A stretch of DNA of 61,276 nt, the filler included, from Nemertoderma westbladi (taxonomy: Eukaryota > Animalia > Xenacoelomorpha): assembly GCA_032718475.1 (NCBI GenBank). It is 3 parts of 3 records of this genome, joined end to end, with 100 filler letters (N's around TTAATTAATTAA, not from the genome) between each part and the next. Parts side by side here need not be neighbours in the genome. Positions count along the whole stretch, not along the records: positions 1 to 24,293 come from JAUCBJ010006029.1; 2 more parts are not named here. One strand, 5' to 3'. Below, one piece after another: positions 2,761-57,344 of this stretch (within the stretch, counting starts at the first letter, position 1; each line of letters begins with the position of its first letter). The notes beneath the pieces are model-generated. The model ran no database searches, had not been told where the DNA came from, and worked only from the letters and a program-made list of their open reading frames with translations. Made by a program: the position numbers and the translations under genes.

Positions 2761-5700
2761 CATAGGGAGTAGTCTTATCGCCCGATGAGAGACAGCGGAT
2801 TACTCAGATAGAGCCGACTATACAACAGAACCCTAGCCAGGAATTTATTACGAGGGATGAGTTAAGTGCTAGTTTAGCGCAAGCTATATCGCCGCACATC
2901 CAACCTATAACGGACATGCTTAGCAACCTACGGTTAAAGGAAGCAGCCCAGGTAAGAAGTAATTCTAATCCTAGCAGGCCTGAACTAGATAAAGTCCAAC
3001 CTAGTCAACGAGTATGCATATCAGAGGCAACTATACCACATAGACCTCAGGTAAGAACGCCTATCCCGACGATTTATAATCCCAACTTCGAGAACTCGGC
3101 CGAAAGGTTTATACAAGAAGCCTGGGTCAGGGCTTCGGCACGCAAACCAACGCGAGCGCTGAGGACTGACACAGACTCAAGCGATGAAGAGGAAGACATG
3201 AGACGTCAGAAGTCCCGAAACTATAAGGTATGAAGGACCGACGCAGAGCAGGTAAGTTTGAACCACCGGGAAAGGACCAGACTTAATAACCCTGCAGAAC
3301 TAAACCATTTGTTAACCTGGAACGACGCAACCCTTAGAGACATAGGTAAGTTTGCCGCTAGGCAAGGACTGCCGACGCAACAACCCCAAAAGTTTATGGG
3401 CAACCATAGACATTGGAGGACGTTCAAAACCTATGTCGACGAACAGCTGACCAACAGCACCTTTACTCCCAACGAGAAGTTCAACTATCTGCTTCAGATG
3501 CTCCATCGAGAACCTAGAGCCATTGCTGACAACTTCGTCGGCAATGAAAGAGCATTTGAGTTGGCAATGAAGACGCTTAGCGACATCTATGGGAATAAAA
3601 TCAAGATGGCACAGTCGATAGTGGAAGACTTGGGTAAGGGCAGAAGGATTACAACTCCGTTAGAGCTGTTGAACTTAGCGAACGCTATTTCGAACGCATT
3701 AGACATCTTGAGGACGGTGAATCTACCTCATCATGGTGATCACGCCGAAGTTTTGAAGAGCATAATAAGACGTTTAAACATGCGTTACCGACAGAAATGG
3801 CGCAAATTAGAGAATAAGTTAGAGGGTCAAGGTAAGGTGTTGACACTTCAACACATCCATGACATGATAGCCACAGACGCGGTAGCAGAGATGAACAAAT
3901 TTCTCAGAGGAGAATATGAGAGAGTCTAAACCTGTTACCGGTAAGTCAATGGTAAGTTTTGACGATGACATGACCACTGTGACTTTTAACTCAGTAGACA
4001 GATATAATTTGAGTACCCCTGCCTTTAGATCAGACTCGCGAGTATGGTCAGGTGAGCAGTCAGATAGACCTAAGTTAAAGCAACAGGAGTTGCCGGTTGG
4101 ATTTGTAGGTTGCCAATTCTGTTTACTAAAGGAGGTAAGATCTGACGACCATAAGTTAGACAGTTGCAGACGGTTCAAAGAATTAACTTCGGAACAGAGA
4201 AGAGTTCAAGTGCGGACGTAGGACACCTGTTGGGCATGTCTTGCGCCAGGTCATGTACTGCGGCAGTGCCCGAACAGTAAGGATAGATGCATGGAATGCG
4301 GCAGACTACATCACAAGTTGCTACATGCGGATTTCCATACCCCAACGGACCGTTACCTACAGAGAAATCCTCAAAGGAAGGGGAGCAGAGAACCCGTATC
4401 GATAAGAAGAAATACGTACACCGGCATCCAGGACGATGGTTATCAACCAGGTTCGTCGGACGAGGATGGCGAGGCGAGCGCGAGAGAAGTGACCTGCCAA
4501 GGGTTCACCGCGGGTAGTTCATCGACCAGCGCGCGGACATATTTGTCATCGGCCACGTCGGAAATATTCAGCGTGATTCCGGTGAAACTTACTGGAGATA
4601 AGGGATCAAAGAGAATATATGTGATGTTGGACACTGTGTCCACATTATCTTATATCGACGAGGAAGTGGCGAGAGCCGTTTCCAGCTTCCAGGATGCAGA
4701 GGAGATCCAAATAGAGTTAAAGTCCATGCATGGGGTAGGGGACCTCAAGGGACACGAAATTTCGGTTGAACTAGACTCCCTACTCCCAAGAGACCAGCAC
4801 ACTCGCCAAGAACGGAGAGCGTTGCCATTAGACGGATTCAAGTGTCTAGCTATGAAAGGGTTCGGCAGGCAGTTAGGTAAGGCGCCACCGATGAGTCCCA
4901 TAGCACAGGAGTATTTTGACAAGCTCAGAGTACCGAGACACCAGGTAAGTTATAGGAATGTATCTATGTTAATTGGTGCAGAACAGCTGATCGCACACCA
5001 AATATGGGAAACGAGACCAGCTGAGCCGCATGTAAATGGACCACATGCCCATAGGACTATACTAGGTTGGTATACACGAGTACCCATGTCTTATGAGTTT
5101 ACAGGTGGCGACAAGCCAAAGGATAGATACAACGGATTACAGCCTATAACTCAACCACCATTAGTAGAACCACCAGACATAGACGAGTTTAGGAGAGCCT
5201 GTATTGACCACTATAGTGACGTTAGCGAGTCGGACGAAGAGTTGATTCCTGATAATGTTAGATTGTCAGAACCACTCTATAACGACCGGACAGATAGTGA
5301 ACCCGAGGACTACTGTTATCAGACCCGTGGGTCTGGTTCAGCGGCCCACGCTACCTACTTGAGTAATGTTTTGACTTACACCGATATAGTGGAGGGTCAA
5401 GTGGCTAGATATCGAGACCTAGACACTTTCCAATACAGTGAGGAGGAATTGCAGGAGGAATTGTTACGCCAGGACCTCGAGACAGGAGCTAGAACCGTGG
5501 AATGGCTGGATAGCGATGCAATGGAACCCGGTGGATATGACCTAACCATGTCCACTGATGAGAAACGGTCGCTGGAGATGATGGAAGACACCATATGTCT
5601 GCTACCGACAGGACATTTTGAAGTTGGAATGTTGTGGCGTCGACAACCACCTAAGTTGGAGAACAACTACAACTTAGCCTTGAAAAGATTAAACGGAGTA

Positions 5701-8700
5701 AGGGCTCGGTTGCTGAAGAATCCAGACATTAGGGAGAAGTATTGCGCCCAGATAAACAACTATTTCGCAAGGGGGTTTGCTGGGAAGGTAGAGGACCCGG
5801 ACTTAGTGACGGACCAGACTTATTACCTCCCACACCACTATGTGACTCATCCTGACAAACCAGACAAAGTCCGATTAGTCAACGAATGCGCAGCAGTCTA
5901 TAGAGGTATGTCCCTGAATTCAGAGTTGATGGATGGCCCCAACCTGAATAATTATTTGATAGGAATACTGTTGCGCTTTAGACAGCGGCGATTCGCGTTT
6001 ACTTGCGACATCGAGGCGATGTTTCACCAGGTAAGAGCCTGCAAGGCAGACCAGGATAGCCTCAGATTTCTCTGGTACGAGAATGAAGACCTATCCGGCC
6101 CAGTGGTTACATACCAGATGTATGTCAGGATATTCGGTGCCCGCGATAGTCCCAATGGCACGCTGTTTGTTCTAAAGAAAACGGCGACGGCCCAGATTGG
6201 TAAGTATCCAGTAGATGTTATCGAGTCCATCTTGAGAAATTTCTACATGGACGACGGATTGGTGTCCAAGGACACAGCAGAACAAGCCATAGAAGTGGCT
6301 CACGGCCTACAGGAGTGCTTGGCTACAGGGGGTTTTCCTCTGACCAAGTTCACTAACAACTCAGAGGCCCTATTAGAATCGTTCCCGGTGAAAGATCGCG
6401 GGAGCGGAGACATTGAATTGGGGGTAGAACCCATCCCCATGGCGCGAGTACTGGGACTCGCTTGGAACCCGAACACGGATAATTTCCAGTTAAGAGTTAG
6501 GTTCGAGCCCAATAGTCCAGACAAAGTTTTGACTAAGAGAATCTGCTTATCCACAATGAGTAGACTATTCGACCTGATGAACTTTCTCAGCCCGGTAATA
6601 TTACAGGCACGAGTATGTATGAGGAAAATTTGGTTGTCCGACCTAGAGTGGGACGAACCAATATCCTATACATGCAAAGCATTGGAGAGAGTGGGAAGCC
6701 GAGTTGCATCTATTGAAAAACATAGATGTACCCCGCTCCTACTTTCCGAATCAGCTGGTATTTCCAGCTGATCTCGAACTGCATTTGTTCAGTGACGCAA
6801 GTGACACCGGCTTTGGTATGGTAGCCTACCTTCGCCGAGAGGTAAGTCAAGACAAATTTGAGACGGCCTTTGTGACTTCTAGATCAAAGACAATGTCGGT
6901 CAAATACATGACTGTCCCTCGTGCAGAGTTACAGGCGGCAGTAGTCTCAGTCGAGGTAAGTAAGCAGATAATAGAGGAGTTAGACACGACATTGACCTTA
7001 TTCTATTGGACGGACGCATCCTTAGTGTTAGTATACATTGCAGCCGACAATATTGCACTAAAGACATTTGTGGCCAACAGACGCGCTCAGATCGTCGACT
7101 TTTCGACGAAGGAACAATGGAGACATTGTCCGGGAGTGTTAAACCCGGCCGCCATAACTTCGAGAGGTGCTATGCCGGCAGAATTCTGTCAGGAAGAGTC
7201 CCAGGAGTTTTGGTTGCATGGACCTGATTTTCTAACGAGGACACAGGAACATTGGCCAGACCGACTGAAGATAGTGACCAATCCGATGCCAGAGGATGCA
7301 GAAGTCAAAGTGGAGAAAGTCTCCAAGTCTAAGTCGAAAGCCAAACTCAAGTTGTTGGATTGGCCTGAAGAGTCATTGGAGCGGCCTGAAGAGTCATTGG
7401 AGCGGCCCGGAGACCTGTCAGACCTAGAGACTTATGTGACGACTAGGTCTGGAAGGGTAAGTTATGACATAAAACCACCCTTACAGACTAAACAAGGGTC
7501 ACAATTGGTAAGTGACGGACAGAAAATGACCTACAAGATGGAGCCTTTGGTTTCCAAACCTGCGGGTTTGAATTCGAAACTTCCATTAACTAACGGACGA
7601 CCGTTGCTGGCATTAGAGCCATGTAGTATATATGACAAATTACTAAATTCGTCTGCCTCTTGGCTGACAATTTGTAAAAGAGCTGCGTGGTTAAGCCGAT
7701 ACGTTTCGTACCTTTGTTTAAAACATTTGGAACATTTAGGAGAACAAATGAGCACTAATATTGAGCGAATTCAGAAATTGAAACGACCTCTGACAGAGGA
7801 TGAGATTGATCAAGCGGAATTAAAGCATTTGAAGCATTATCAAATGTGTGCCTTCCCAAAAGAATTCTATCTATTATCGGCTCAATGACCAGTTCTCTAT
7901 AAACCCCTTAGAAAATGGAGCCCATTAATCCATAAGGGTTTGATTTGTCATAGATCGAGAATCCAGACTGTCGACATAAACTCACAGTTTAGGTTCCCAG
8001 TGATAATCCCTAGTCACCCAAAAGAATTGCAAAGAGCGATTCTATGGGATATACATAAGAGGTTGCATCACGCGGGAAAGTTACACTGTTTGTCGGCAGC
8101 GAGACAGCGATTCATTCTATTGCAGCCAAGCAGGGCAGTAGGTAGTATGTACGACGCTTGTCTGGTTTGCAAGAGAGTGAACGCCAGAGTATTGGAACAG
8201 GAGATGGCTGAACTCCCGGAAGCGAGAGTGCAGGCATATGACCCACCCTTTACAAATACAGGGGTGGACTGTTTTGGTCCGATTGAGGCAAAGAGTGGAT
8301 GGCTGACCCACAAGCGATGGGGCCTGCTACTGATATGCATGGCCAGTAGAGCCGTACATATAGAGCGTGTGGCAGACATGTCGACCAAATCTCTGCTCCT
8401 GGCCTTAAAGAGATTTATGGCCAGGAGAGGACTAGTAAAGGCGTTTTACTCCGACAAGGGTACAAACTTTGTCGGAGGGAATAGCGAGTTGAACGCGGCT
8501 CATAGGGCGGCGCAGAATAGAGAAATCTCTGCAGCACTTTTGCCGCAAAGAGTGGAGTGGAGATTTAACACTCCAGAAAGTCCTTGGAGAGGAGGAAGTT
8601 GGGAGCGTTTGGTTCGTTCTATAAAGCAGGCCATTGCTAAGACATTGCCTGTAAACAAACAACTTACCGACGACAAGCTGGTCACAGCTTTCATCGAAAT

Positions 8701-9218
8701 CGAGCATACACTAAACTCGAGGGCGATAGCTATGTTGCCAGACGGTGTTGCTTTAACGCCGAATCATTTGCTAATGCAGAGTCCAGCGTTTCTTGTGCCG
8801 AGCATCAGAACCCATTAGTGCCGACCTATACAGTCGTAAGAGCTGGAAAATAACCCAATTTGTTGCGTACGCATTCTGGGAATATTGGCGGGAATATTAT
8901 CTTCCCACCATATCCACCAGATCGAAGTGGTACAAAACGGTTCGGAGCCTCCAAAGAGGAGACTACGTATTGATAACCGAACCAGTTGTCAAGAGAAAAT
9001 ACTGGGAGACCGGAGTCATCTTGCACATACACCCAGACGTGCAAAATATAGTGTGCACCGTCACTGTGAAAATAAGGTGCAAGTGTCCGCACCCAAAGAA
9101 GTGTAAAACTAATGGTTTACACACCTTGGACCGACCGGTCCAAGATATCGTGTTATTAGAGGAGACACGCATCGAGACAGGAGATTATAATTTGTCTCCT
9201 GCCTCAAACCAAAATTAG
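2761..9218 (+). pseudogene. BEL/Pao gag-pol with several stops and frameshifts
   Basis: Gag DUF1759-like EKFNYLLQML; Zn fingers CQFC..H..C, CWACLAPGHVLRQC, CMECGRLHHKLLH; protease MLDTVS; RT FYMDD; RNase H LHLFSDAS; integrase HHCC, GVDCFGP, SDKGTNF, WERLV; DUF5641-like tail FWEYWREYYLP. Confidence 0.93.
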
Positions 9219-9977
9219 TGTTGGACGCAACTCACTTCGTATGCATTCCTCGTATGCAAATACTAGGAAATGCATAGGAGCGGGTTTGTGGTGATTTGCG
9301 TTGAGAATTTGTCTGGTGGGTATCAAAACAAAATTTTATCTTCAAAAATGTTTGGAAAATTAAAAATTTTAAAAATTTAGAAGTGAACCCAAGACAATTC
9401 CAGACGCTGTGTATAGACGCGTTTTAGAATTCGTCTATAGACATACAGTAATTTGAAAAGTCGTGAAGCCTGGAAAATAGCATTTAGAAACCATGGTGAT
9501 TACGGCTATATTACGTAGGAGTGTAAATTGAGTTTAGCAACTTCCACGGATTGGTGCCAACAGTACAACAACCAAGGTGCTAAAGGTTAGTAGCACCAGA
9601 GGCGTACACGGACCCCACTCAGTAGTTTGGAGTGAAGTGAGGTGTTCGATTATCAAACCTGCGGGTTTGGTATAGTCGAGCACCAAGACTATTGTCCTTT
9701 CTAACTACTGTAGTTTAGTACGAGTAATGGGAGTAGTTTTGGCATCAAAAAGTGAGTTGGTCACAGCCAGTTTATCTCCAAAGTTTTTGCGCTATGCATG
9801 GGAATAGGTTAGAGGATAGTTAGGAATGAGATGGGATCTAGAAAGTCGAACCTGAACTGCTGGAAGGCGGCTGGGGGGTTCGGGAGGTCTGTCCTTCGGC
9901 GTCATCTAACTGATTTACCCACAGTGTAATTAGTTACATAACGGACCTATTGGGATATATGTATATACGCTGCTATA

Positions 9978-11931
9978 ATGGAGAAGGAAATTAGAGCGCA
10001 ACCGAGGAGAGGATTTACTGCCAGAGAGGAGGCGGAACTACCATTTGCCCGACCCGGGTGTAAAGACTCAAACGTCTACTACCATGGGAAGTCGGTGATG
10101 GAATTGAATGGGAAGTACAAGCCCACGTATGATAAAGAGTTGAGGAGGGAACGGATGAGAGCGTTGGGAGACTGCATGGAGGTTTTAAGGAAGGAGTATC
10201 GCACTCGTTATCCCTACGACTTTGCCTTAGATGTATGTGACATTAGTGCAGACCCGGACGAGGAGATCGCACGGCTGTACCATATGAACATGTATTTATG
10301 ATACGACGAACCTCTACCTGCAGTCCGAGATCAGTTCGACGGAATGCATCTGTACCGGAGGACTCGAGGTGAGGATCAAGAAACGCCAAAGGTCTTCAGT
10401 GTATACAAGTTGTTCTACAAATGTGGTGAATGCATGAATAAACAAGACATGGCGATTCCCGATCAACTGAACGAGCAACATCCTGAACCGATATTAACGC
10501 GATGTCAAGCTCACCAGTTCCTTAGATACAATGAGGGCGGTTACCCGATGAGCAACCCGATGATCAGTATCGACTTTAGCGGAAAGCGACCTCCGAGACC
10601 CATTACACCGACCGTTACGACTTTAGATCCGTATACGGAGATTAAACCCTGTTCGACACCCAGTTTGATAGAGACGGCAGCGGCCATTTCGCTATACCGA
10701 GCCTATAAGGACCTAGAGGTGCGGCGCGAAGTGGCATGGGACTCGGGTACCAAACCCGCAGGTTTGGAGCTCTCGAGTCCATGGACTACGTTTACTTTGC
10801 CTCACCGAGCGAGAAATCTCACGCCTGAGCATCAGGACGACATAGATGCATTGCGGCAGGAGGAGCGAGCGGCGAAGGCGAAACAATTATTCGAAGAACG
10901 GGTAGCCGAGTATAATAAGACCGCGGATAGACATCAGGAGGAGACGAGGAGAGTGACCGGATTTGTTCCACAGGCCGTATCTCAACCCCGACCGATGTAT
11001 TATTCTGACGGCAACGAACCTGCGATATTGGTAGATCACCCGGAGTCGCGAGAAGCGATTAGATTCTTGCCGATGGAGAGAATGTCGGATCATTGGAACG
11101 TCGACTGCCTACGGGAAGTTCTTGCGTGACGTCCCAATGCAGATAACGGATTACGACACGCTAGACAAGATTGGAGCTCCAGGAAAGGATAGCAAGTTGT
11201 TTTGATGGTTGGATAAGTACATAAAGGTATGGGTCGCGGTGGCTACATTCCCAGACGACGAGGAGGTAGACCAGGCGTGGCTAAGGAGAAAGGGTTCCTA
11301 CACCCGATACGATGACCACAAGGCTATTGAGCGCATGTGGACCCCATCCGACGAGATCTAGCGTCAGTGGAGAAAGATGGAGGAATCACTACAAGATTGG
11401 CGAGTGATATTCTACGACAATGAGGGAGGGTCCCATCAAGAATGTTTAACTAGTAAGTGCATTCAAATTCGCGCGGCCGATGGTGTGACTCATGTGTTTA
11501 TGCGTGTGAGGGCGGACCGAGAGAGACCGGAGCCCATAATAACGATGCAATATCGGCGGGGGAAGGATCCCAGAGAACAGATTTTGGAGGTATGCAGGTG
11601 AGGAGGTATGCACGGAGCGGAGCGTATCGATGCCAGGATGCTACCCAAGAAAGTAAGAGAGGCGATTCTCAATCAAGATTATGTCAAGGTGGGATCGGGA
11701 GTCCAGAGCAATTTGGAGAGTGACTTCAACGCCATGACTGATTTGGAGGACAGATTGCCGAGACCGTTTGTCGACACCAAGCTATTGTTGCTATGGGCAC
11801 AGGATATTGGAATTTATAGGGAGTATCCCAACTCTGCCAAGACTGGTATGGGCTTCATAGTGCATTTGTTATATAATTGGGACTTCAAGTTAAAGACGCA
11901 AAAGAAATACGAGGAGGCGTATGGTGAATAT
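9978..11931 (+). pseudogene. Family A extra ORF, 5' part: unknown N-terminus plus DEDDy 3'-5' exonuclease-like ExoI/ExoII
   Basis: ORFs 9978, 10344, 11377 and 11608 are linked by point stops and one frameshift; IFYDNEG, CIQIRAADG, LPKKVREAILNQDYVKVGSGV and FVDTKLL resemble WRN_exo/Mut-7 motifs. Confidence 0.72.
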
Positions 11932-14900
11932 AACACGTCCGTGGGGCCTTCGCGCAGCACGAGGCCCAGTTATGAGATACAAATTAAAATTGTGCGACTG
12001 TATCACAAAATCAGGTTATGAGAGATTAACCCACACCACCAATTAATCAAAGAAAGGGGGACAGTACGTGTTCACCCCTTTTAATCTGCACCCCCCCCCC
12101 CCCCCCTCCCCCACCCACCAATACATAACCGCGACATCTACCACCCACGGAAGGGTAGCACGAACTTAATTCCAAACGCACGTTCAATATGCAAAGCCAG
12201 GTGGTTTATAGGAATATAATCAATGCAGTACTCGTCTTCATTATAAGCCTCTTTGCGTTCGACCTGCTTTGTATTAAAATATATTTATTAAACGCAGGCT
12301 GACGCTCTTTATAATAATAATACCTAGGGATGCCAGCTTCCAGACTTTCAATCTTTACTGCCACGCAAACCCCGCAGAGGAAGTTTTGGTTTGAGAGATC
12401 AAGCCCATCGGCAATTGGTGTTTCAATTTCGGTCCAGGAACTCTGACAATGGGATCATTCAATCTTAGCTGTGGTCCATTCCCGTGGTTTCGGCTCCCTT
12501 TTCTTCGTCCCAATAACAGATTCTTCTGAAGACGTTCGATTCGCTTTCAGTTTATTGTTGGCGTTTGTGTTTTGAAGTTGTATTCGAGTGGACAGTCGCG
12601 CCGGTTTCGAGGTAACCGCTTTCAGTTTATTGTTGGCATTTGTGTTTTGAAGTTGTATTCAAGTGGACAGTTGCGCCGGTTTCGAGGTAACCATACCGAC
12701 CTGTGATAAGCGTTGGTTTTGTTGAGTGTCGGTATTCATCTTCTCTCACCTCTCCAATGTCAGATGTTGCAAATACGAATAACGGTATATATTTCAATAC
12801 TTGTCAATAGTAATATAGATAATTTACTATTTTATATCTGTACTGTTGAGCAAACTCTACATAAATTCCAACCTGTGTATCGTCGGTAGGGCTGTTGCTG
12901 TGCAAGTGCTAGTTGCCACCGGTCAGCCGGTACCGGTAGTAGGGTGGTACCATGGCCTACTACACACAGGCCATGACAAGGACTTTGCTGTGAAATTAGC
13001 GTAGGCTGACTGATGAATTATCAAATATTATATTTTCCATGAATGCAGGGTCCACATTTAAAAGAAGATGACTAGATTTTCGTAAAGAATTTAATTGAAA
13101 CAGTATTTAATAATAAATAAATTAATTATCGCTCGAGTTCCTGCAGCTTTTATTCATGGCAGGAATGTTTGAACGCTAATAAGTCGGTCAATCATGGATG
13201 AAATGGAACCAAACTTGGTACTCATGTAGTCTATAAAAAATTTAGAAATTCTACACACAGACAGACTTCTACAGTTCCCCGGTCTGCCGTTAGGGGGCGA
13301 ATTAACAGAAACGTAAAAATAGCTGTAATTATAGAACCAACGATCAGATTCATCTGAAATTTAGTAGTAGTTACCTACGAGCATTGCTTAATTAGAAATT
13401 CTACAGAGACTTTTACAGTTCCTGTCTGCCGCTAGTGGGGAATTGTTAGAGCTCCAGTTCAACGTGCTTAGCACGGTTTAATAAACAATCAATTAATTAT
13501 TTTATTCAATACAGCAATTATAACAGTAAAATGCAATGTATTCTATTTTTTAGTGAAATCAAGAGATAGGAGGGGGGTGGGACTGGACGCAAATCCCATC
13601 TTGGCGAATTAATATCCCGCCTCAATATTAATTTCTAAATTTTGGGAAAGGAGCAGGTTACAGTGGCACGTTATTTTAACCAAAACAATAAAGTAAACAC
13701 AATAGAACAGGTTACAGTTTTATTTTTGAGAGTAATCAGCTGTTGTTATTTGCGTCCAATTTCCCCTGGAGAGGGATGAATTTTTATTGCGTCCAGTTCC
13801 CCCCCCCCCCCCCCCCCCTATCTTGAAATCAAATACCAAAAATATATTTATTATATGAACAATCTATTTGGAAATTGTAAGTTCGGCCTATCTCTTTACC
13901 ATAAGCTCAGTATCTTTATCTGGTGTGTTTTTATTATTTTACCAATTATTTAATATGTTTGATAGAATTGAACAACACCGCCCAACACAACCAACTCTCT
14001 ATCCGCCTCGAGCATCGAGAAATACCTGCTTATCCCAGTAGTATCCGTCCGTAGTCACCGGACCGCTGCGGTTTACTCCCGTAGAACAGTAGAATTCCCG
14101 CAGCTTCCGACCCAATTCGACAACGAATTCGCTTCACACTTTTGCGTCACAGAGAACGTAATCCAGTGCGATAACGTCTGCCCAACGTTCAACCATTTCC
14201 CCCAGGCGATCCCAGGATACGGGCCGCCGCTAAACCCTGATCGCACTCCTCGTCGATTCGTCCAGTCGTCGACGTAAGTCAGTAAGTGGGACTCTTCCCA
14301 CCGCACTCCAAGGTGGGTGACCGGAGTGAGGCATGATGAACTTGGCAGTGGCCCGCATTACGATCTGACCGACCGCCGTATTCCCAGTGTAGTAAATACC
14401 CAAATAGAATCGTACTGACAAACAAGCAATTCCGTAGTATTCCCCTGTTAATCACCTCTTGAAGCAAATCGGCTGTCGATACATCGGACTGTCGGGAGCG
14501 TTTCAGACAGTAATGGAGCGGCATTTGCGAATATTTCCAATGGTTTTATAATAAATAAGGGGATTCAACAGTTCAATGCTAAAACAAATGGATTATTCCT
14601 AACCCCACCCCAATACAGCAATATACCTAACAGTATATAGCTTAGGTACCACAGTCTGACAGTACCATAATCAGCACAGTCAGCCTACGCATGGGTGGTA
14701 CCTACGGTGCGCACTACAACGGCAGTACAGCAATACGGTGTACCGTGCCAATGACTGAATGATTAGCGGTAACTACTGAACTATCTAAACTATTATATTA
14801 TTATTACCGGTACTAGGCTAATTAGGCCTAAACTATAATCACCGCAAGGGTTTCCGGGGCCATGTTTAGATTACATGATATGGCATGTCTGCAGTGTATG

Positions 14901-15370
14901 GTACCGGCTGACCTGTATTGCAGTATTGACTGATTGCAGAATTCTCGATTCAGGAATTGAGTACAGCCTGACAGTACCGGTACAAATGGTACATGCAGAT
15001 TGGCAGACAGCCCCTATGTTTTGCAAAATTTGTCAGAAAACCAGCTGATTTATCCTACAGTAATAATAATTTAACGCATGTTAATTTTGGATAAATAAAT
15101 ATATTATAACTACAATAACAGTTACACCGAAGCTGCACGAAGGCCCCGCGCAAATTCTACTTGGAAAATTTTCAAACTTTTGCCAAACAACATGTGTACC
15201 AAGTTTGGATAGATTTCATCAAGGATTGGCCGAGTTATTAACGTTTAAAATAAAATACTGAAAAAAAACGCGACAGAACGACAGAACAACAGAACGACAG
15301 AACGACAGAACGACTGGTTGATTAATGGTACCACTACGCTAAGGCTCACTCACTTTGTGGCTCGCCCCAC
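11932..15370 (-). mobile_element. Helentron/HINE (DINE-1-like) non-autonomous element inserted in the extra ORF
   Basis: Removal restores the frame (GAA TAT|ACA CCA CCG); no clear TSD; hairpin gggcct...aggccc near one end, gtggggc/gccccac sub-terminal IR, (acagaacg)n microsatellite at 15270-15314; same two ends occur at 26182-26472. Confidence 0.75.
13970..14520 (-). pseudogene. Captured aldehyde dehydrogenase (ALDH3-like) fragment, frameshifted
   Basis: Stitched frames: TADLLQEVI..IYYTGNTAVGQIVMRATAK..TLECGGKSPTYVD..IAWGKWLNVGQT..REFYGSKPQRSGDYGRI, a class 3 ALDH core. Confidence 0.85.
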
Positions 15371-17013
15371 ACACCACCGGGAGCGGAGTTCAAATCCCAC
15401 TTCAAGCGGCAAGCGTTAGTGTATTGGAACATCTGCGCGCCACCCCGTGCGTCGCTGCAATATTATTTGGTGCTTGAGTCGAACACGGTAACTTGTTTAT
15501 TAGCGGATATCGTTGCGCGAGTTTTGAAGCGTCATCCATTGGTATTCGTTCGGATGAGATCAATACGTTCGCTCGAAAGGGGGAATCCAATCCGACGTGA
15601 TGAAGCGTTTCTTAACCCCGTTCTTCAACCAATCGTTAGAGAATACGTCAATGGTTAGGAGAGGATTAGCGATATTCGAAGGAGTATATCGACAGAACAT
15701 CGGAGATTTGGGAGACCGACCATCGATGGAGTATCCGACGCCAGAGGCCTTGGAGAAGTGGTTAGGGAATCAAACCCGCGGGTTTGGTACTCCCGTCCAC
15801 TTGGAGGCGGATAGACCCGTTAGAGAGGGTTGGCCGGAGACATTAGTAGAGGTGTTCGGAGTGGATCTTCCGGTGGAGAAGACATATCCGAAACGAACGC
15901 GGGAGGAAATATTGGAGATAGAGGACAAGGGCGAGGATGTTTACTTTGTTCCGGATCGACAACCTCTGACCAGAGAGGACGACATCGTATTAGATATTGG
16001 GAAGGAAGGGAGTGCGAAACCGATTGGAGACCTCATATATGAGAGGGGATGGTTTCCACAAGCGCGTAGATGCAAGCTGTGCGGCAGCACGAGACACAAT
16101 CAAAAGTCGTGCGACGCGGTAGTAGAGGCGGCGCATAAGGTCTGCCGTTGGTGTAAAGAGACAGATCACTCGTTTCATACGTGCACCGTCTTCATTTCTC
16201 AATGCGGATATTGTGGGGTAAAGGGACATCGTAGCGCGAGATGCCAACTACGAGATGATTCCTTCCAAAACCATAGCATTTTGGGCAGTAGACCCATCGC
16301 ACATTGCGTATGAGCCATATCTACAATCGTTACCGCAATATCAGGAGCTAATATTAACCGCTCAAGATCTTCCGCAGAACACTGGAGTTATTGTTGTTCG
16401 GGAATACTTTCGACAACTTAACATGGATAACAAATATACTTGGAACTTTGTTGCTATTTGCGACCGTATAACAAAGGGTCTATTTTCAGAAACCAGGAAG
16501 GTGGTGCACACGCGAGGAGACTGGAAAATGGCGGCTATACAATACCGCAATGAGTTCCTATTGACTCACATACCGGTGGGGTCATTGACCGCCGAGCGGA
16601 TAAAGGAGCAGCGAACCGCAGCGCCCACAGCGACAACCGCTGGAGCTCAAGGCTCGCAGCGAGAACCAGGAGGAGAGGTCCTAGACAAGCGTCAAGTCAA
16701 GGACGACCGCTATCATTCGATTATAGAAGCGCAGCGATTGCAGCGCAAGGCACAGGGGGCGTCCGAAAAGGCGCGTGTGCAATTGCAGAAGGAGGAGTTG
16801 GTGGAGGCGACCACAGGAGCACGACAATTGGGACGAGGCCGAGGGAGAAGTACCAGCCGAGAATCAGTCAGGGCCCAGGGAACATCGTCGCCGGTTCCGG
16901 GGAGTGACGCCTCACGGGCGCCGTCAACAGAGTCAACACGAGGAAGACTGGTGTATCTGGGGAGGGGGCGAAAAAGAGGAGCGAGCCCGAAGAGCCCAGG
17001 AGCGGGTCAATAA
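15371..17013 (+). pseudogene. Family A extra ORF, 3' part: ExoIII-like helix, three CCHC zinc knuckles, basic RG-rich tail
   Basis: YWNICAPPRASLQYYLVLE; CKLCGSTRHNQKSC, CRWCKETDHSFHTC, CGYCGVKGHRSARC; tail GRGRGRSTSR; two frameshifts. Confidence 0.75.
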
Positions 17014-17532
17014 TGCAATCGTATCACGGAACGACAGACTCTAGATATATACATCATTGTCGCTCTGATGTATATTGTAGCATTTTTGTAAATATTCGAC
17101 TGGACTCATATACACTAGTCGTACTAATTTGAATTTATATTATGAGAGAGGAGAAGGAGGCGATTGGGGAGACAAACCTGCGGGTTTGGCTTACTCCTTT
17201 CACCTGCCCTAGCAAGTTTTATATGAAGGCAATATTTAGTAAATTTAATTTTGTATGTAGTAATCATTATGTAGTACAAACGAGAAAGCAGTATTTTTGT
17301 AAATTTAATTTGTATGTAATAATCGTTAACATTGAGAGAGATAATATTTTTGTAAATTTGATTTGTATGCAAACCCATTATGCAATATATCTGCAATATT
17401 TTGTAAATACTTAGAATTATTATGATACCAAGTTAATTAGATTCTTTGAAAGTGAATTTATTTTGTTTTGTCTACATCGCCCTATATTCTTCTACAATTG
17501 GAGGGAAACATTGCTTGTTTCCCTTGGAGCGG

Positions 17533-19775
17533 TGTTACGATATATGGCGCTGTGTACCTATATTAGTCGTTATACAGTATATATATATATAGTATTAGAT
17601 AAGCCATAAAGACGTGCAATCATATTTAGATAAGGAAAGTAAAACGCCCATATTTGAATTTATCCATTTTATACAGTATGTAGTCCTACCTAGGTAATTT
17701 TGTAATAAAATATAAGTAAATAGTTCCATTGATATAAGCTTGCTGTTATTAGCCTCAATAGGACTAGCTGTGTATTGGGTTTAATTTTCTTTATATTTGC
17801 GCTAAATTAATTTCTATGTATCATATTATTAGTACCGCTAAATTAAGCATCACCAAAATTAACATATATGGTGACGATTTGTGATTTCAAGGAGCAATAG
17901 GTTCACAATCCGGCTTCCTTATTGGCCTAGCTGCTTCCAGGTTGGTCTAATGGTAGCGCAGATTGGGGAGCCAATCAGAGAACTATTGCATCATCCCTCG
18001 TGAATCACCTATAAATTGGCGGTATTTCCGGTATGTGCTGTGTAATTTTCTCATGATCTTAATCTCTCTATCTCTCACTATTCTGCTGTACTGTCACGAC
18101 TGTACCTTAGAATTATTCTGTATTTTGCGTATTTTGTAATTTTGTCATGATCTCAATCTCTATCTCTCACTATTCTGCTGTACTGTCACAACTGTAGAAT
18201 TATTCTGTATTTTGCGTATTTTCTGCTTTTTTCAATTATTTCTTGCAATAATTCGCTAATTTGTAATTTCTACTGATTTCTTGTTGTGTTTCTCAATTCA
18301 ATCCCAATGATTACTGCTAATTACAATCGGAACTATGATTTCTACCCTTTAGTTAATGGTTCTATGTATTCCTTTCGATGCAATAATCCCATGGGATTTC
18401 CTTAGACTGTCAGACTTTGTGATTGCATGCGCCGTTACGGTAGCTACCCATTAGATGGAGGGCTGAGGTACCGGTAGGCGCGGCAGGCGCATCGGGGGGT
18501 TAGCGACGAAGGGAGTGGGGAGGATTCAAAGGCAAGCAACGCTGGCGGGGGGTCACCGTTGCGGTCGGAAGGTTGGCAGTGTAGAGAGAAGACAGCTCGC
18601 TGGTACAGTAATTAATGGGCTGATGATCCAGATTTTGTCTCTATTTTGTAGTATTAGGGGGGCAGGAATCGGGTTAGTTAGGAAGCCTAGATGTACCCGG
18701 GAGAGGCCTTTGTGCTTTACATTGCGGACTGAATTGTAGACTGCGTCGCAAACTACGTTGCGAACTGTAGATTGCGAGTTGTGAACTGTGAATTGCTGAC
18801 TGCTGATTGTGAATTGTACATTAGGAACTATAATTGGTAAGTATAAATTATTGATTGTTACGCTGATTGGTGTGTTGCTAAAGTGTGCCTAATAAATCAT
18901 GAATGTTTAGATAGGCGCCCTTTTTCCTTTGATTGATTTCTATTTCTTAGTTTACGATAAATAATTACTGATTAGGTCGAAAATAATACAGTATTTAGGC
19001 TGTTACTAGTGCAACCCGTTGTGTAATAAATTAGAATTACGCATTCTGGAACACTTAGTAATTAGTACGCTGTTTCATATTTGTGACTGCAATTAATTAG
19101 TAAAATTAAGAATTTGTATGCAGCATAGCGGAGAGTAGTTAAGGTAATAATTTGGAGTACCGTAAACTATTCACGCTGGGCGGTTATTTGAAATTAGCGG
19201 GTAATAAGTTAGATAGCAGTATCCAGTACGCAGAACGCAGTAGTAAATTGCTGGCCTAAAGCCAGCCGAAGGCAAGTTTAGACCTATAGTAGGTATTAGT
19301 CCCTGATAAGACACTGCATCTTCCTTTTTTTGATTATTTAAATATTCTCACATTCACATATTCCGTTAGGGAACCCCAGTATTTGCTATTAGAAAGGACG
19401 CGGTTATTAGCGCGTTTTAGCAGTAAGATTAGGCCATAAAGAATATACTCTGAGTGTAAAGCCTCTCACACTCGTTTTAAGTAGCTTAGGGAGCCGATTC
19501 GGGTTTATTGTTTTGGTTTTCCCGCGTGGCTCATATATTCGAACAGTTAGCTCTCTATCGAGCGATCGGTAGAGAAAGGAACAAGCGATTTGCAGGAGCC
19601 GTAGAAAATTTGTAAAATATATTAGCGGATGGCAGGTTAGCGCCATCCAACGGTAAATAGCGGTTTTGTATTTAGCAGCCCTACAGTAGTAATAGCACGC
19701 TCCTGATCACCCCTGTTTAACAGTAGAGCAGTCTTTGTGTCTTTATTGGTTAGGCAGGGACCCGCTAGTTTAACA
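17533..19775 (+). repeat. 3' LTR of family A copy 1 (2243 bp)
   Basis: TGTTA...TAACA termini, preceded by a hairpin and GGAGCGG; homology with 45420-47499 ends exactly at TTTAACA. Confidence 0.88.
17965..18020 (+). promoter_or_regulatory. Putative LTR promoter (CCAAT + TATA)
   Basis: agccaat...cacctataaattggcgg, conserved in copy 2 (45901-45968) amid divergent flanks. Confidence 0.55.
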
Positions 19776-37250: not shown

Positions 37251-37419
37251 TCACAGCCTAGTGATCTGCCGCCTCAGAGGCAAGAACCTCATACCTAAAG
37301 ACCTAACCTGACGCATGTGAGGCCAATTGTGTCCGGTAATTCCAGTGGCCTCTAGCGGCCGGGCCTCCGCATTACTAATGTAATCCATAGTGAGGATTGG
37401 GGGGGGGGGGGGGGAGCTT

Positions 37420-40805: not shown

Positions 40806-40821
40806 AGATGCAGAAGTCAAG

Positions 40822-42771
40822 GTGGAGAAAGTCTCTAAGTCGAAGTCTAAAGCCAAACTTAAGTTATTGGAGCGGCCTGAAGAGTCATTGGAGCGGCCTG
40901 AAGAGTCATTGGAGCGGCCTGAAGAGTCATTGGAGCGGCCTGAAGAGTCATTGGAGCGGCCCGGAGACCTGTCAGACCAACAGACTTACGTGACTACTAG
41001 GTCAGGAAGGGTAAGTTATGACATAAAACCGCCCTTACAGACTAAACCGGAGTCACAGTTGGTAAGTGACGGACAGAAAATGACCGACAAAATGGAGCCT
41101 TTGGTTTCCAAACCTGCGGGTTTGGATTCGAAACTTCCGTTAATTAGCGGACAACCGTCGCTGGCATTAGAGTCATGCAGTATTTATGACAAATTACTAA
41201 ATTCGTCTGCCTCTTGGCTGACAATTTGTAAAAGAACTGCGTGGTTAAGCCGATACGTTTCGTACCTTTGTTTAAAACATTCGAAACATTTGAGAGAACG
41301 AACGAGCACCAATAGTGAGCGAATTCGAAAATTGAAACAACCTCTGACAGAGGATGAGATTGATCAAGCGGAATTAAGGCATTTGAGACATTATCAAATG
41401 TGTGCCTTCCCTAAAGAATTCCATCTATTATCGGCTCAACGACCAGTTCTCTATAAACCCCTTAGAAAATGGAGTCCATTAATCCATAAGGGTTTAATTT
41501 GTCATAGATCGAGAATCCAGACTGTCGACATAAACTCACAGTTTCGATTCCCAGTGATAATCCCTAGTCACCCAATAGAATTGCAAAGAGCGATTCTATG
41601 GGATATACACAAGAGGTTGCATCACGCGGGAAAGTTACACTGTCTGTCGGCAGCGAGACAGCGATTCATTCTATTGCAGCCAAGCAGGGCAGTAGGCACC
41701 ATGTATGACGCCTGTCTGGTTTGCAAGAGGGTGAACGCCAGAGTATTGGAACAGGAGATGGCTGAACTCCCGGAAGCGAGAGTGCAGGCATATGACCCAC
41801 CCTTTACGAATACAGGGGTGGACTGTTTTGGTCCGATTGAAGCAAAGAGTGGACGGCTGACCCACAAGCGATGGGGTCTGCTACTGACATGTATGGCTAG
41901 TAGACCCATACATATCGAGCGTGTGGCAGACATGTCGACCAAATCTCTGCTCCTGGCCTTGAAGAGATTTATGGCCAGGAGAGGACTAGTAAAGGCGTTC
42001 TACTCTGACAAGGGTACAAACTTTGTCGGAGGGAATAGCGAGTTGAACGCGGCTCATAAAGCAGCACAGAATAAGGAAATTTCTGCAGCACTTTTGCCGC
42101 AAAGAGTAGAATGGAGATTTAATACTCCAGAGAGTCCTTGGAGAGGAGGAAGTTGGGAGCGTTTGGTTCGCTCTGTGAAGCAGGCCATTGCCAAAACATT
42201 GCCTGTGAACAAACAACTTACCGACGACGAACTGGTCACAGCTTTCATTGAAATCGAGCATACACTAAACTCGAGGCCGATAGCTATGTTGCCAGACGGT
42301 GTTGCATTAACGCCGAATCATTTGCTAATGCAGAGTCCAGCATTTCTTGTGCCGGCATCAGAACCCATTAGTGCCGACCTATATAGTCGTAAGAGCTGGA
42401 AAGTAACACAGTTAGTGGCGTACACATTCTGGGAATATTGGCGGGAATACTATCTTCCCACCATATCTACCAGAACAAAGTGGTACAAGACGGTTCGGAG
42501 TCTCCAAAGGGGAGATTACGTGTTGATAACCGAGCCGATTATCAAGAGAAAGTATTGGGAGACGGGAGTGATCTTGCACACACACCCAGACGTGCAAAAC
42601 ATAGTGCGCACAGTCACTGTGAAAATTAGGTGCAAGTGTCCGCACCCAAAAAAGTGTAAAACTAATGGTTTACACACCTTGGACCGACCGGTCCAAGATA
42701 TTGTGTTATTAGAGGAGACACGTATCGAGACGGGAGATTACAATTTGTCTCCTGCCTCAAAACAGAGTTAG
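40822..42771 (+). CDS. Pol C-terminus (integrase plus DUF5641-like), uninterrupted, 5'-partial
   Basis: 649-aa ORF with HHCC and DDE motifs; lacks the stop and frameshift of copy 1. Confidence 0.9.
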   Translation: MEKVSKSKSKAKLKLLERPEESLERPEESLERPEESLERPEESLERPGDLSDQQTYVTTRSGRVSYDIKPPLQTKPESQLVSDGQKMTDKMEPLVSKPAGLDSKLPLISGQPSLALESCSIYDKLLNSSASWLTICKRTAWLSRYVSYLCLKHSKHLRERTSTNSERIRKLKQPLTEDEIDQAELRHLRHYQMCAFPKEFHLLSAQRPVLYKPLRKWSPLIHKGLICHRSRIQTVDINSQFRFPVIIPSHPIELQRAILWDIHKRLHHAGKLHCLSAARQRFILLQPSRAVGTMYDACLVCKRVNARVLEQEMAELPEARVQAYDPPFTNTGVDCFGPIEAKSGRLTHKRWGLLLTCMASRPIHIERVADMSTKSLLLALKRFMARRGLVKAFYSDKGTNFVGGNSELNAAHKAAQNKEISAALLPQRVEWRFNTPESPWRGGSWERLVRSVKQAIAKTLPVNKQLTDDELVTAFIEIEHTLNSRPIAMLPDGVALTPNHLLMQSPAFLVPASEPISADLYSRKSWKVTQLVAYTFWEYWREYYLPTISTRTKWYKTVRSLQRGDYVLITEPIIKRKYWETGVILHTHPDVQNIVRTVTVKIRCKCPHPKKCKTNGLHTLDRPVQDIVLLEETRIETGDYNLSPASKQS

Positions 42772-43528
42772 TGTTAGACGCAACTCACTTCGTATGCATT
42801 CCTCGTATGCAAATACAAGGAAATGCATAGGAGCGGGGTTGTGGTGATTTGCGTTGAGTTTTGTCTGGTGGGTATCAAAACAAAATTTTATTTTCAAAAA
42901 TTTTTGGAAAATTAGAAAATTTTAAAAATTAGAAGTGAACCCAAGACAATTCCAGACGCTGTGTATAGACGCGTTTTAGAATTCGTCTATAGAAAACAGT
43001 AATTTGAAAAGTCGTGAAGCCTGGAAAATAGCATTTAGAAACCATGGTGACGGCTATATTACGTAGGAGTGTAAATTGAGTTTAGCAACTTCCACAGATT
43101 GGTGCCAACAGTGCAACTAAGGTGCTAAAGGTTAGTAGCACCAGAGGCGTACATGGACCCCACTCAGTAGTTTGCAGGATGTGTGATGTTCGATTATCAA
43201 ACCTGTGGGTTTGGTATAGTCGAGTATTGTGGCTATAGTCCTTTCTAACTACTGTAGTTTAGTACGAGTAATGGGAGTAGTTTGGGCATCAAAAAGTGAG
43301 TTGGTCACGGCCAGTTTATCTCCAAAGTTTTTGCGCTATGCATGGGAATAGGTTAGAGGATAGTTAGGAAGAGACGGGATCTAGAGAGTCGAACCTGAAC
43401 TGCTGGAAGGCAGCTGGAAGGGGGGTTCGGGAAGTCTGTCCTTCGGCGACATCTAACTGATTACCCACAGTGTAATTGGTTTGCGTAACGGAACACTTAT
43501 TGGGATATATATGTGTATACGCGGGCAT

Positions 43529-44601
43529 AATGGAGGAGGATATTAGAGCGCAACCGCGCATAGGATTTACTGCCAGAGAGGAGGCGGAGTTACCATTCGC
43601 GCGACCGGGATGTAAAGACTCGAACGTTTACTACCATGGGCGGTCGGTGATGGAGCTAAATGGGAAATACAAACCCACGATTCCCGACCGACTAGACGAG
43701 CAACATCCAGAACCGATATTAACGCGATGTCCAGCTCACCAATTCCTTAGATATAACGAGGGAGGTTACCCGATGAGCAACCCGATGATCAGTATCGACT
43801 TCAACGGAAAGCGACCTCCGAGACCCATTACGCCGACCGTTACGACATTAGATCCGTATACGGAGATTAAACCCTGTTCGACACCCAGTTTGATAGAGAC
43901 GGCAGCGGCCATTTCTTCGCTGTACCGAGCCTATAAGGATCTAGAGGCGCGGCGCGAGGCGGTACGGGACTCGAGTTCCTGGACCACGTTCACTTCGCTT
44001 CACCAGGAGAGGAAGCTCACGCCTGAGTATCCAGACGAGATTCGCGCCGTCCATCCGTCTACTAACTATATCCAAGATCCGCGGTTTATACGATATTTAC
44101 TCCAAATTATTTCGGGAAGTTTCGACGAACGCATTATTAAGCCCGAATATGTCCAATCCTTTATATATCATCGTCGCTCTGATATATACGTCTAGAATTA
44201 TTACCCAGCGCACAATTGGCGGCCTAAGGAGACTCGTTTGGGGTCATTGACCTCTGAACGAGTGGAGGATCAGGACCGCCGCGCCCACAGCGACAACAGC
44301 CGGAGCTCACAGCTCGCGGCATGTACCAGAAGGAGGAGTCCTTGGCAAGCGTCAAGCCAAGGACGAGCAGTTCCACTCTATAAAGTTGAAGGAGGAGTTG
44401 GCGGAGGCGCCCACAGGGACACGGCAAATGGGACGAGGCCGAGGGAGGAGCACCAGTCGGGAGATCGTCGGTGCCCAGGGAACGTCGTCGCCGGTTCCGG
44501 GAAGTGACGCCTCAAGAACGCCGTCAACAGAGTCTACAGGGGGTAGACTGGTGTATCTGGGGAGGGGAGCGAGCCCGAGAGACCCAGGAGCTAGCCGATG
44601 A
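43529..44601 (+). pseudogene. Internally deleted version of the family A extra ORF
   Basis: Start MEEDIRAQPR and end GRLVYLGRG are retained; exonuclease and zinc knuckles are absent. Confidence 0.85.
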
Positions 44602-45419
44602 GACTATAATATCACGGAGCGACAGACTCTAGATATATACATCATCGTCGCTCTGATGTATATCGTAGGTTTTGATCAATCATTCGACTGGACTCATATA
44701 CACTAGTCGTATCCATATTTTAGAAATTTATTTTCGAAGGCCGAAAAATATTGAAAGGAAATACTTTTATTTTGTAGTCCGATTGGAAATAGTAAATACT
44801 TTAACTATATTTGATTTTGTGTATATGACTTTATTTGCTCTAAAGTTTATTGAAAGAGGCAAAGGAAGTGATTGGGGAGACAAACCCGCGGGTTTGGCTT
44901 ACTCCTATCACTTACCTGAGCAATCATCAAACCAAGATGATTTGCGTTTTTTATAAGAAATTAAGTAAAGTCCGAAAATGAAAGAAATTATTACGTATTT
45001 TATATTTAATTTGATTATCGGCCTTTAATGCAATTTAGTTAAAAATTTAGCCTCAAATACGTTTATATTTAGTTTATCTTGTTAATATTGCTTGTTAATT
45101 TGAGATGGGAAATGGGGGACATTGTCCTAGCCATGTTTCATTTCAATATGTAGATCGTCAATTTGTAAGTAAGTAAAGGAAGTAATATTTTGTAATTTAA
45201 TTTTGTATGTAGTAATCATTATGTAGAACGAACGAGAAACAGTATTTTGTAATTTTAATTTGTATGTAATTCATTATGCAATATCTATGGCAATATTTGT
45301 AAATAGTAGAATTATTATGTTATTTAGATTGGTTGGAAGAAATTTATTTTGTTTTGTATACATCACCTTATACTCTTCTACAATTGGAGGGAAACATTGT
45401 ATGATTTCCCTTGGAGCGG

Positions 45420-47499
45420 TGTTACGGTATATGGCGCTGTATCCATAATATTAGTCATCATGCAGTATGCAATATTAGTCCGTTATGCAGTATGCAATAT
45501 TAGTCCGTTATACTGTATGTAATATTAGTCCGTTGTGCAGCATGATATTTTAGATAAGGCATAATAACGCAGTGGTATTTAGATAGGGAAATCGAAACAC
45601 CCATATATTTGAATCCATCCATTTTGTATAGTATGTAGCCCTACCTACGTAATTTTGTATTAGGTTATATGTAGATAGTTCCAGGGTAAGTTTATTCGGA
45701 CCCTGGATTCCGTGCTTGCTGATATTAGCTTTAGTAGGGCTAGCATATAGGGACGCTGTCCTGGCCATTCAGCAGCCAGAGACGTGAACCATTACCATAT
45801 ATGGTAATAATTCGAGGAAGGGGAGCAAATAGGGCTACAATCCGGCCTCCTTATTGGACTAGCTGCTTCCAGGTTGGTCTAGTGCTAGCACGGACTGGAG
45901 AGCCAATAAGAAAGCGATTGAGTCACCCTATTGCATCACCCCATCCGGATCACCTATAAATTGGCGGTGTGCCGGTAGAGCCTCACCAACTCATCACATG
46001 ACACCTAGCCCTAGCACCTGTCTTGCTGTTTTTTCTTGATACTTTCTGCAATTTGCTAATTTGATTAATTTCGTGAAATGATTTGCTAGTGCGATTACTT
46101 GCTTGTGTTTCTCAATAATTCCTTCGATTACTGCTAATTACAACTGAACTATGATTTCTACCTTTTGATTAATGGTTCTATGTGATTCTTTTCTGCGCAA
46201 TAATCCTAAGGGATTCCTGAGACTGTCAGACTTTGTGATTTGCATGCGCCGCTACGGTAGCTATTAGCATAATGGAGGGCTAAGGCGCCAGTGGGCGGTG
46301 GGCACATCGGGGGGTTAGCGACGAAGGGAGCGGAGGATTCAAAGGCGAGCAACGCTGGCGGGGGGTCACCGTTGCGGTCGGGCAATTTGCATTGTAGCGT
46401 GGGGGCAGCTCGCTGGTACAGTAATTAGGGGGCTGATGATCCAGGTTTTGTCTCTATTTAGTATTAGGGGGGCAGGAATTGGGTTAGTTAGGAAGCCTAG
46501 ATGTACCCGGGAGAGGTCTGCGTGCTTTACAATTGCGAATTGCATGTATTGCAGTATTGCGAATTATTATATTGTGCTGTGTAATTGCTAATTGCGTGCA
46601 TTGCGGATTGTACAATTGTGAATCGCGCATTGCGAGCTGTGATTGCTGACGCTGATTGGTGTGTTACTAAAGTGTGCCTAAGATTACGAATGCTTAGATA
46701 GGCGCTCTTTTCCCTTTGATTGATTTCTATCTCTTAGTTTACTGTAAATAATTACTGATTAGGTCAAAGTAATACAGTATTTTAGGCTGTTACATATTTG
46801 TGACTGTAATTAATTAGTAAAATTAAGAATTAGTACGCAGCATAGCGGAGAGTAGCTAAGGTAATAATTAGAGTACCGTAAACTATTCACGCTGAGCGGT
46901 TATTTGAATTAGCGGGCAATAAGCTAGATAGCAGTATTCAGTACGCAAAACGCATTAGTAATTTGCTGGCCTAAAGCCAGCCGCAGACAAGTTTAGTCCC
47001 ACTATAGGTATTAGCCCTAATAAACACTGTACCACTTTGATTATTTTAAATATTCTCGCATTCACACATTCCGTTAGGGAACCCCCAGTATTCGCGATTA
47101 GAAAAGATGTAGGCATTGGCGTACTTTAACAGTAAGATTAGGCGTAAGAATATACTCTGAGTGTAAAACCTCTCACACTCGTTTTAAGTCAGCTTAGGGA
47201 GCCGATTCGGGTTTGTTGTTTTGGTTATTCCCGCGTGGCTCATATATTCGAACAGTTAGCTCTCTATCGAGTAATTGGTAGAGAAAGGAACAAGAAATTA
47301 GCAGGAGCCGTAGACTGGTAGAAAATTAGTAAAACATATTAGCGGACGGCAGGTTAGCGCCATCTAACGGTAAGTAGCGGTTTTGTATTTAGCAGCCCCT
47401 CACATTAGCAATAATACGCTCCTGATTGCCCTGTCTAATAAATAGAGCAGTTTGCAGTTTTGTGTCTTTATTGGTTAGGCCGGGGTAGTTTGTTTAACA
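45420..47499 (+). repeat. 3' LTR of family A copy 2 (2080 bp)
   Basis: TGTTA...TAACA; homologous to 17533-19775. Confidence 0.88.
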
Positions 47500-48871: not shown

Positions 48872-49493
48872 TGTAAGCGGATTCAATTCCGTTTCATTAT
48901 CCACCTTAGAATGGGACCACAGGCATTTTATCAATATAGTTGGGGATACGAGATTACCAATAATAATCTCGCCTCATAACCAACTTTGGGAGGGGGGGCG
49001 ACACAAGCCCTAAAGCCACAGAGAGAGGTGAGATGTCAAACCACCTTGGAGGGAGAACACAGCTAGTAGAGGCTAGCAGCGGGGGGAAACACTCACAGGG
49101 AGTGCCAAAGTGACAATTAGTATATTACCCAATAGCGGGGAGGGAAGCACGTGATTGGAGATAGGAAAGCATCCACTGGGTACAGAGGGCCAAGTACAGT
49201 AAGAGGTGAAACCAATATCTGTGTGTATCAATCCAGACCGGTCATAGTATATGACCGTCACTGCTACCAACATAACCAATTAATATCTGTGTATTTTCTG
49301 CTGTTATTTTGTATCGTGATATTCATTACATACATAGTTCTGTGCTATTACCATTTCGGAAGATTAATATTGAGAAACACAAACTCTCTTATTTCCCCGA
49401 CGGCCTTCGGCTAAAACGACTATAGTACAGCAGCTCCAGCGAAATGGTGACGCGTACATATCTAACCCGGTCAGGATCTATGATCCCATCACA
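48872..49493 (+). repeat. 5' LTR, family B
   Basis: tgtaagcggattcaattc...cccatcaca. Confidence 0.88.
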
Positions 49494-49545
49494 GTCATAA
49501 ACTCACCAACTAAAGCAAACTGTGACTGCAACAAGACACAGCAAG

Positions 49546-57223: not shown

Positions 57224-57344
57224 AGTTTAGTCGTCCAATATGTTGGACTAAGGGGGGTGGGAATGAGGGTGAGACGCCCTTCCCACATAAAAATATAAAA
57301 AAAAAATAATAAGCAAATAATAAAAATAAGAAGCGAGATATTTG

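Follow-up and report, generated by a model that had tools for sequence, protein, structure and literature searches.

A third gene with a probable DEDDy-type exonuclease domain and three zinc knuckles in a BEL/Pao retrotransposon family of Nemertoderma westbladi

The question raised by this locus of Nemertoderma westbladi (assembly GCA_032718475.1) is what kind of protein a BEL/Pao retrotransposon, a member of the family which we take to be the Belpaoviridae, encodes in the slot between pol and the 3' LTR that is usually held by env. In the window, i.e., the whole analysed stretch of 61,276 nucleotides, this slot contains an additional reading frame (ORF3) in two pieces (9978-11931 and 15371-17013) with a combined length of 1,199 codons, in agreement with the approximately 1,200 codons counted in the initial annotation of this DNA.

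The carrier is recognized by its decayed gag-pol region (copy 1, 2785-9218), in which a domain profile search recovers DUF1759, Peptidase_A17, Integrase_H2C2, and DUF5641; this domain set bears out the proposed BEL/Pao identity, and the position of the integrase after the reverse transcriptase (RT) corresponds to the Pao-type order of gag-pol domains. The 5'-truncated and decayed gag gene (2785..4270, plus strand) is represented by DUF1759 (E 1e-10) and a knuckle at 4228, with the flanking contigs ending at 2784, and is followed by a decayed pol gene for protease, RT, and RNase H as well as integrase (4222..9218, plus strand), which contains Peptidase_A17, Integrase_H2C2, DUF5641, and a YMDD motif at about 6244. 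The 120 best database relatives of the integrase region share only 35-44% identity with it, indicating a divergent lineage. A second copy (copy 2, 40807..47498, plus strand), which is 91% identical to copy 1 over the pol end, consists of this pol end, an ORF3 that is internally deleted and lacks both exonuclease and knuckles, three hairpins, and an LTR. Both copies carry an LTR-like end of ~2.2 kb, represented in copy 1 by a probable 3' LTR (17533..19775, plus strand) with TGTT..AACA termini, which is located 3' of a purine-rich tract and is common to copy 2; it contains an internal duplication near 18041-18234. A search for paired LTRs and a target-site duplication yielded one 3' LTR-like end per copy and no 5' LTR within the window, both copies being 5'-truncated. 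As a lead only, a branch-point/acceptor-like CTAAC..CAG (9906..9924, plus strand) is present 5' of ORF3 in both copies, through which the ORF3 message may be spliced.

The surroundings of the two copies contain a decayed minus-strand RT of the non-LTR type (1691-2431, RVT_1 E 3e-21) beside the point where copy 1 is truncated at its 5' end, and a tandem array of about 45 units of 31 bases (47500-48900) immediately 3' of the copy 2 LTR. A third, unrelated BEL/Pao element at 49500-57300 (Peptidase_A17 E 6e-39) shows Asn-rich repeats in gag and contains neither an ORF3 homologue nor the hairpin described below. At 35837-38322, inverted repeats of 499 bases (96%) flank 1.5 kb with a weak match to DUF6451, and positions 1-58 of the window match the end of this unit. 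An open frame of 136 codons at 59038-59448 could be a host gene fragment.

ORF3 of copy 1 is not the single decayed frame that had been assumed, as it shows stops and three frame changes, located near 11115-11130, near 15545, and near 16250-16310. It is further split within the probable DEDDy domain by a high-copy, non-coding insertion without assigned strand, which had been noticed as an insertion, and whose ends are now corrected from 11932-15370 to about 11933-15368. The insertion is an independent unit, since contigs of public sequencing runs show its left end preceded, before 11928-11933, by a multitude of unrelated flanks, while in run X3 a loose end runs from the left ORF3 piece straight into sequence matching 15376 onward. 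Its features include a hairpin-like terminus, a microsatellite of 8 bases near its end, and seemingly nested repeats, and it may resemble the Helitron/Helentron-type non-autonomous elements.

ORF3 is a member gene of the family which is under purifying selection and is broken in copy 1. Its membership, as claimed in the initial annotation, is confirmed by contigs of other copies that read across the insertion site and by copy 2, which does retain both the start (43530-43979) and the end (44239-44591) of the frame. Four public sequencing runs from at most three samples contain the family, one of them (X4) being guessed to be RNA, and the three DNA runs cover both ORF3 and pol with thousands of contigs. 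Contigs across the first two frame breaks differ from copy 1 in net length by frame-keeping amounts, and those of other copies differ from it at all three stops tested within 11131-11931. Selection was judged from 40 of the 72 variant sites in 11050-11975, which were picked by support, so that the list leans to positions where copy 1 differs from most copies. Third codon positions account for 28 of these sites (p 2e-6), and the changes comprise 29 synonymous and 8 non-synonymous ones, plus 3 at the stops of copy 1. The resulting pN/pS among the listed sites amounts to 0.10-0.17 according to the weight given to transitions, which provides the dN/dS-type check suggested beforehand with a value not near 1. 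Where the state of copy 1 recurs in some other copies, 25/28 sites are synonymous, compared to 4/12 of the near-private sites (Fisher p 0.0007), among which are each of the three stops as well as the ExoII Asn of copy 1. Such a distribution, with shared sites mostly silent and near-private ones not, is that of a gene which selection preserves in active lineages and which decays once a copy has inserted. It extends to both ORF3 ends, where the comparison of copies 1 and 2 over 255 codons gives 52 synonymous changes and 43 non-synonymous ones, with 54/95 changes at third positions vs. 8/35 in a non-coding control; the corresponding values for pol are 58 synonymous and 36 non-synonymous changes in 500 codons. 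A chance open frame and a host gene captured by copy 1 alone were both rejected as explanations of ORF3. An envelope gene was rejected as well, because no transmembrane segment (top 19-residue hydropathy 1.34) and no family match were found.

Four parts may be discerned in the encoded protein, all on the plus strand. The N-terminal part (9978..11361) is interrupted by one stop, one frame break, and further stops, includes near 10422-10520 a CxxC..CxxH cluster, and shows a silent-site bias relative to copy 2; its 460 residues have no match in family databases, and no usable atlas match was obtained for 10302-11126. The probable DEDDy domain follows from ExoI to past ExoII (11362..11931), as suggested by profile tests and selection, and ends beyond the insertion with a KRQ..W..Y block and a weak ExoIII (15371..15544). 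After a spacer of ~180 residues, three zinc knuckles of the CX2CX4HX4C type are arranged in tandem (16071..16244, starting at 16071, 16143, and 16203); a six-frame search of the window yields only five such motifs, of which the two outside ORF3 lie in gag genes. An atlas match of the knuckle region is TUT7 at 0.78, which is taken as a lead only. The C-terminal part (16300..17013) consists of about 100 unassigned residues without a family match and a tail rich in R, G, and S. The three CCHC knuckles and the RG-rich tail noticed initially are both real features of the frame.

The assignment of the DEDDy domain started from short motifs, all of which are found where they had been reported: IFYDNEG as ExoI (D at 11416, E at 11422), the ExoII site at 11710, FVDT with its D at 11773, and a W at 15425 followed by the YY/E region (YY at 15461/15464, E at 15476). 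The D-x-E of ExoI follows a hydrophobic strand and reaches a block score of 6.0, and the ExoII and FVD blocks are obtained with p values of 0.005 and 0.001, respectively. In ExoIII, W and Y occur at canonical spacing and a Y-x3-E one residue further on, and each of the four registers tried gives a negative block score (best value -5.5). For profile tests, 41 natural DEDDy domains were collected as seeds, 18 of them WRN-like, and a profile of 11 WRN-like seeds ranks WRN, Mut-7, and EXD2 first in PDB. The 41-seed HMM assigns 5.5 bits to the broken domain (with X at the breaks), which none of 2,000 shuffles, 483 six-frame segments, or 589 segments of BEL polyproteins (pol) reach; a library search done blind would not count this score as significant, and the DEDDy family was selected once the motifs had been noticed. 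The 11-seed HMM yields 3.9 bits, reached by 2/2,000 shuffles, 0/483 six-frame segments, and 3/589 pol decoys, and the domain scores better with the WRN-like subset of seeds (3.8 bits vs. -1.6). Seven profile blocks in the proper order (IFYDNE, KCIQIR, THVFMRV, the VKVG block, FVDT, KRQ..W, and the YY helix) form a chain of 44.5 bits (z 7.2), compared to a maximum of 28.2 among 3,000 shuffles and to in-sample scores of 86-154 for true seeds. The chain score is the same without spacing limits, where 0/1,500 shuffles and 0/1,072 decoys reach it. With the ExoII core fixed and its flanks shuffled, only 6/2,000 attain this score, indicating that the remaining motifs give independent support.

Searches without prior choice of a family remained blank. 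The exonuclease piece shows no match in Pfam, PHROGs, NCBIfam, or PDB sequences, and does not reach the curated Pfam threshold for DEDDy, the query consisting of pieces of a decayed, insertion-split copy. Neither phmmer against 1.84 billion representatives nor word-index searches (longer and near) gave a match, none of 79 candidates among metagenome loci was confirmed, only 5 weak unrelated matches were obtained from plasmids, and 120 BEL polyproteins did not contain a DEDDy match. Alignment by hhalign of the ORF3 domain against DEDDy gave probabilities of 3% and 8%, and global alignment failed. A single-sequence AlphaFold model (pLDDT 40.5) gave nothing clear with Foldseek and VIA; a model with a guiding alignment (pLDDT 55.7) retrieves EXD2 at the top (E 0.11), a result which is circular. 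In this model, for which homologues of the C-terminal half served as guide, the N-terminal half stays under a pLDDT of 50, and the best VIA match has a Z of 4.0, with no DEDDy protein among the 50 listed. Taken together, the domain is likely to adopt a DEDDy fold of the WRN/RNase D type. The original claim of a DEDDy exonuclease finds support, as a probable domain, in the ordered blocks, but not in the ExoIII block or the database searches.

If the fold is accepted, the domain may equally well be an active or an inactive nuclease. It had been regarded as a possible pseudo-nuclease from the Asn in ExoII; however, this residue is private to copy 1, as every covering contig from four runs differs at this codon, and a second acidic candidate, the Asp at 11722, lies four residues further on. 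The argument from the Asn therefore fails, the residue not being shared by other copies.

The family is also characterized by a hairpin with a CAAACC/GGTTTG stem and a YGYR loop. The 16-base motif occurs 8 times in the window, compared to 0.03 occurrences expected, and a general scan for CC-YGYR-GG hairpins of at least six pairs retrieves nine sites, all within the two copies of the family. Copy 1 contains six of them on the plus strand: a diverged one with one compensatory pair (5320..5335) and a second one (7555..7570) in pol, one with a long lower stem between pol and ORF3 (9654..9669), two within ORF3 in different codon phases (10751..10766 and 15771..15786), and one in the 3' UTR (17173..17188). 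Those of copy 2 are located at 41109, 43198, and 44881, and the family carries hairpins in pol, in ORF3 in two codon phases, and in both untranslated regions. The 8-pair stem is paired to 94% and shows two compensatory columns, and its covariation score is reached by 2/500 shuffles; however, this test counts three orthologous copies among its nine rows and uses a structure obtained from the same sequences. Differences between copies at paired positions preserve the pair in 10/11 cases. With the core kept fixed, the flanks add stability at 9654 (reached by 0/400 shuffles), 10751 (1), and 41109 (4), have a marginal effect at 44881 (19/400), 43198 (22), 7555 (25), and 15771 (35), and none at 5320 (125/400) or 17173 (292). 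The plus strand folds better in 7-8 of 9 windows, which is weak evidence in view of its G-richness, and the core is palindromic, so that it may also represent a DNA operator. No Rfam family was found at gathering score, the one match (E 0.29) being located off the hairpins, and the pattern retrieved no BEL or ORF3 sequence from 120 metagenome stretches, with 22 viral loci carrying it as well.

A protein with these features might be a TbRND-like RNA-trimming factor, combining the knuckles with the probable DEDDy domain, and we tentatively proceed from this reading of ORF3. Single-stranded RNA would be held by the knuckles together with the basic tail and be trimmed at its 3' end by the exonuclease domain inside the element's own ribonucleoprotein, the substrate most simply being the element's own RNA or primer. 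The model is TbRND, which consists of an RNase D exonuclease domain and four CCHC fingers (PDB 7c42/7c45), and for which deletion of the zinc fingers is described to strongly reduce RNA binding and cleavage (PMC7797062).

It is less probable, yet deserves consideration, that the DEDDy-like domain and the knuckles form an RNA-binding adaptor which binds the element's hairpins and routes or packages the RNA, with catalysis being dispensable. This would agree with the weak ExoIII and with the confinement of all nine hairpin sites to the two copies of the family, the third BEL element having neither hairpins nor ORF3, but the co-occurrence rests on two families, and Gag is an equally good candidate ligand. 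As a precedent, the DEDDy protein Egalitarian (Egl) recognizes stem-loops with bulges, that of the I-factor among them, of which it reads two in each transcript; its signals are described as having no overt common sequence, whereas the hairpins of the ORF3 family have a fixed core (10.1101/2025.08.03.668247; PMC13186709). A counter-defence function, in which the ORF3 protein would degrade or over-trim host piRNAs or siRNAs, appears unlikely. It would fit to the multi-copy state of the family and to the action of host DEDDy proteins in small-RNA pathways, as in the case of EXD1 and of the profile relatives Mut-7/Nibbler, with EXD1 itself being an inactive, RNA-binding DEDDy member (PMC4712191); against it, rotifer elements with DEDDy-ORF3s are reported to be still covered by small RNAs and to show no clear gain in copy number (PMC5408684). 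More doubtful is a self-contained system of zip-code and reader, in which an Egalitarian-like ORF3 protein would read the six YGYR hairpins and route the RNA to the germline or particle, replacing an envelope gene. Drosophila Egalitarian resembles the ORF3 product in being large and containing a DEDDy domain, whose residues are retained but not needed for RNA binding, and its bulged stem-loop targets also include retrotransposon RNA; it is, however, a host gene with no knuckles in the descriptions covered (10.1101/2025.08.03.668247; PMC13186709), and the Egl-specific domain was not detected in ORF3. An action on DNA, either on cDNA ends or in proofreading as by the WRN exonuclease, is improbable: the preference for WRN-like seeds and the DEDDy domains of Dada transposons, which are thought to process DNA ends (PMC3706591), point in this direction, but the preference is small, and the three knuckles and the RG-rich tail suggest RNA. 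Equally improbable is a selected knuckle protein of another fold with a chance likeness to DEDDy, as the seven ordered blocks outscore every shuffle and decoy in spite of the blank blind searches and two AlphaFold models without a clear fold.

If the reading of ORF3 as a DEDDy-like protein with knuckles holds, enzymatic third genes would extend from rotifer elements to BEL/Pao. The family adds evidence of purifying selection for such an ORF; the rotifer study, which tested env and GDSL ORF3s, did not obtain such evidence within the genome (PMC5408684). To the question of what DEDDy ORF3s do, the family contributes a version with knuckles and an RNA that is a candidate ligand, so that binding and nuclease assays could tell the models of trimming, adaptor function, and counter-defence apart.

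A view on known systems shows precedents for each half of the protein. DEDDy-type ORF3s are described for the LTR retrotransposons Juno and Vesta of bdelloid rotifers (PMC5408684) and for Terminons (PMC6431247), DEDDy domains are present inside Dada transposases (PMC3706591), and a review names the domain among the accessories known from LTR elements (PMC6338049). Like Juno and Vesta, copy 1 is an LTR element whose env slot is taken by an additional ORF, here probably of the DEDDy type, but it is set apart from their descriptions by its BEL/Pao carrier, the length of about 1,200 codons, and the three CCHC knuckles; only a Cys-His-Cys motif is mentioned for some of the rotifer ORFs in the text covered (PMC5408684; PMC6431247). 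In the cellular members of PF01612 (WRN, EXD2, and Mut-7), the blocks ExoI, strand 2-3, ExoII, FVD, and W follow each other as in ORF3, which differs from them by insertions of about 40 and 25 residues, an unmatched ExoIII, and a score below the Pfam threshold. Compared to the BEL/Pao elements surveyed (PMC3118150), copy 1 has the same gag-pol domains in the same order and differs by a non-envelope third ORF; the term "exonuclease" is absent from the main text of that survey. TbRND likewise has its exonuclease domain followed by tandem CCHC fingers, but is the product of a cellular gene with about 375 residues, four fingers, proven U-tail trimming, and a linker of about 28 residues between domain and fingers, compared to about 180 in ORF3 (PMC7797062), and the likeness is probably convergent, with homology apparent only at the level of the superfamily. 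Given the exonuclease and CCHC combination of TbRND, the architecture has more of a precedent than was initially thought; in BEL/Pao, no DEDDy ORF or exonuclease-CCHC combination was found in the literature covered; prior annotation is possible in Repbase, Dfam, supplements, and most subscription journals, which lie outside this scope. The likely novelty is a BEL/Pao carrier of an ORF3 uniting a DEDDy-like domain with knuckles, whose two halves are preceded by the rotifer ORF3s and by TbRND, respectively.
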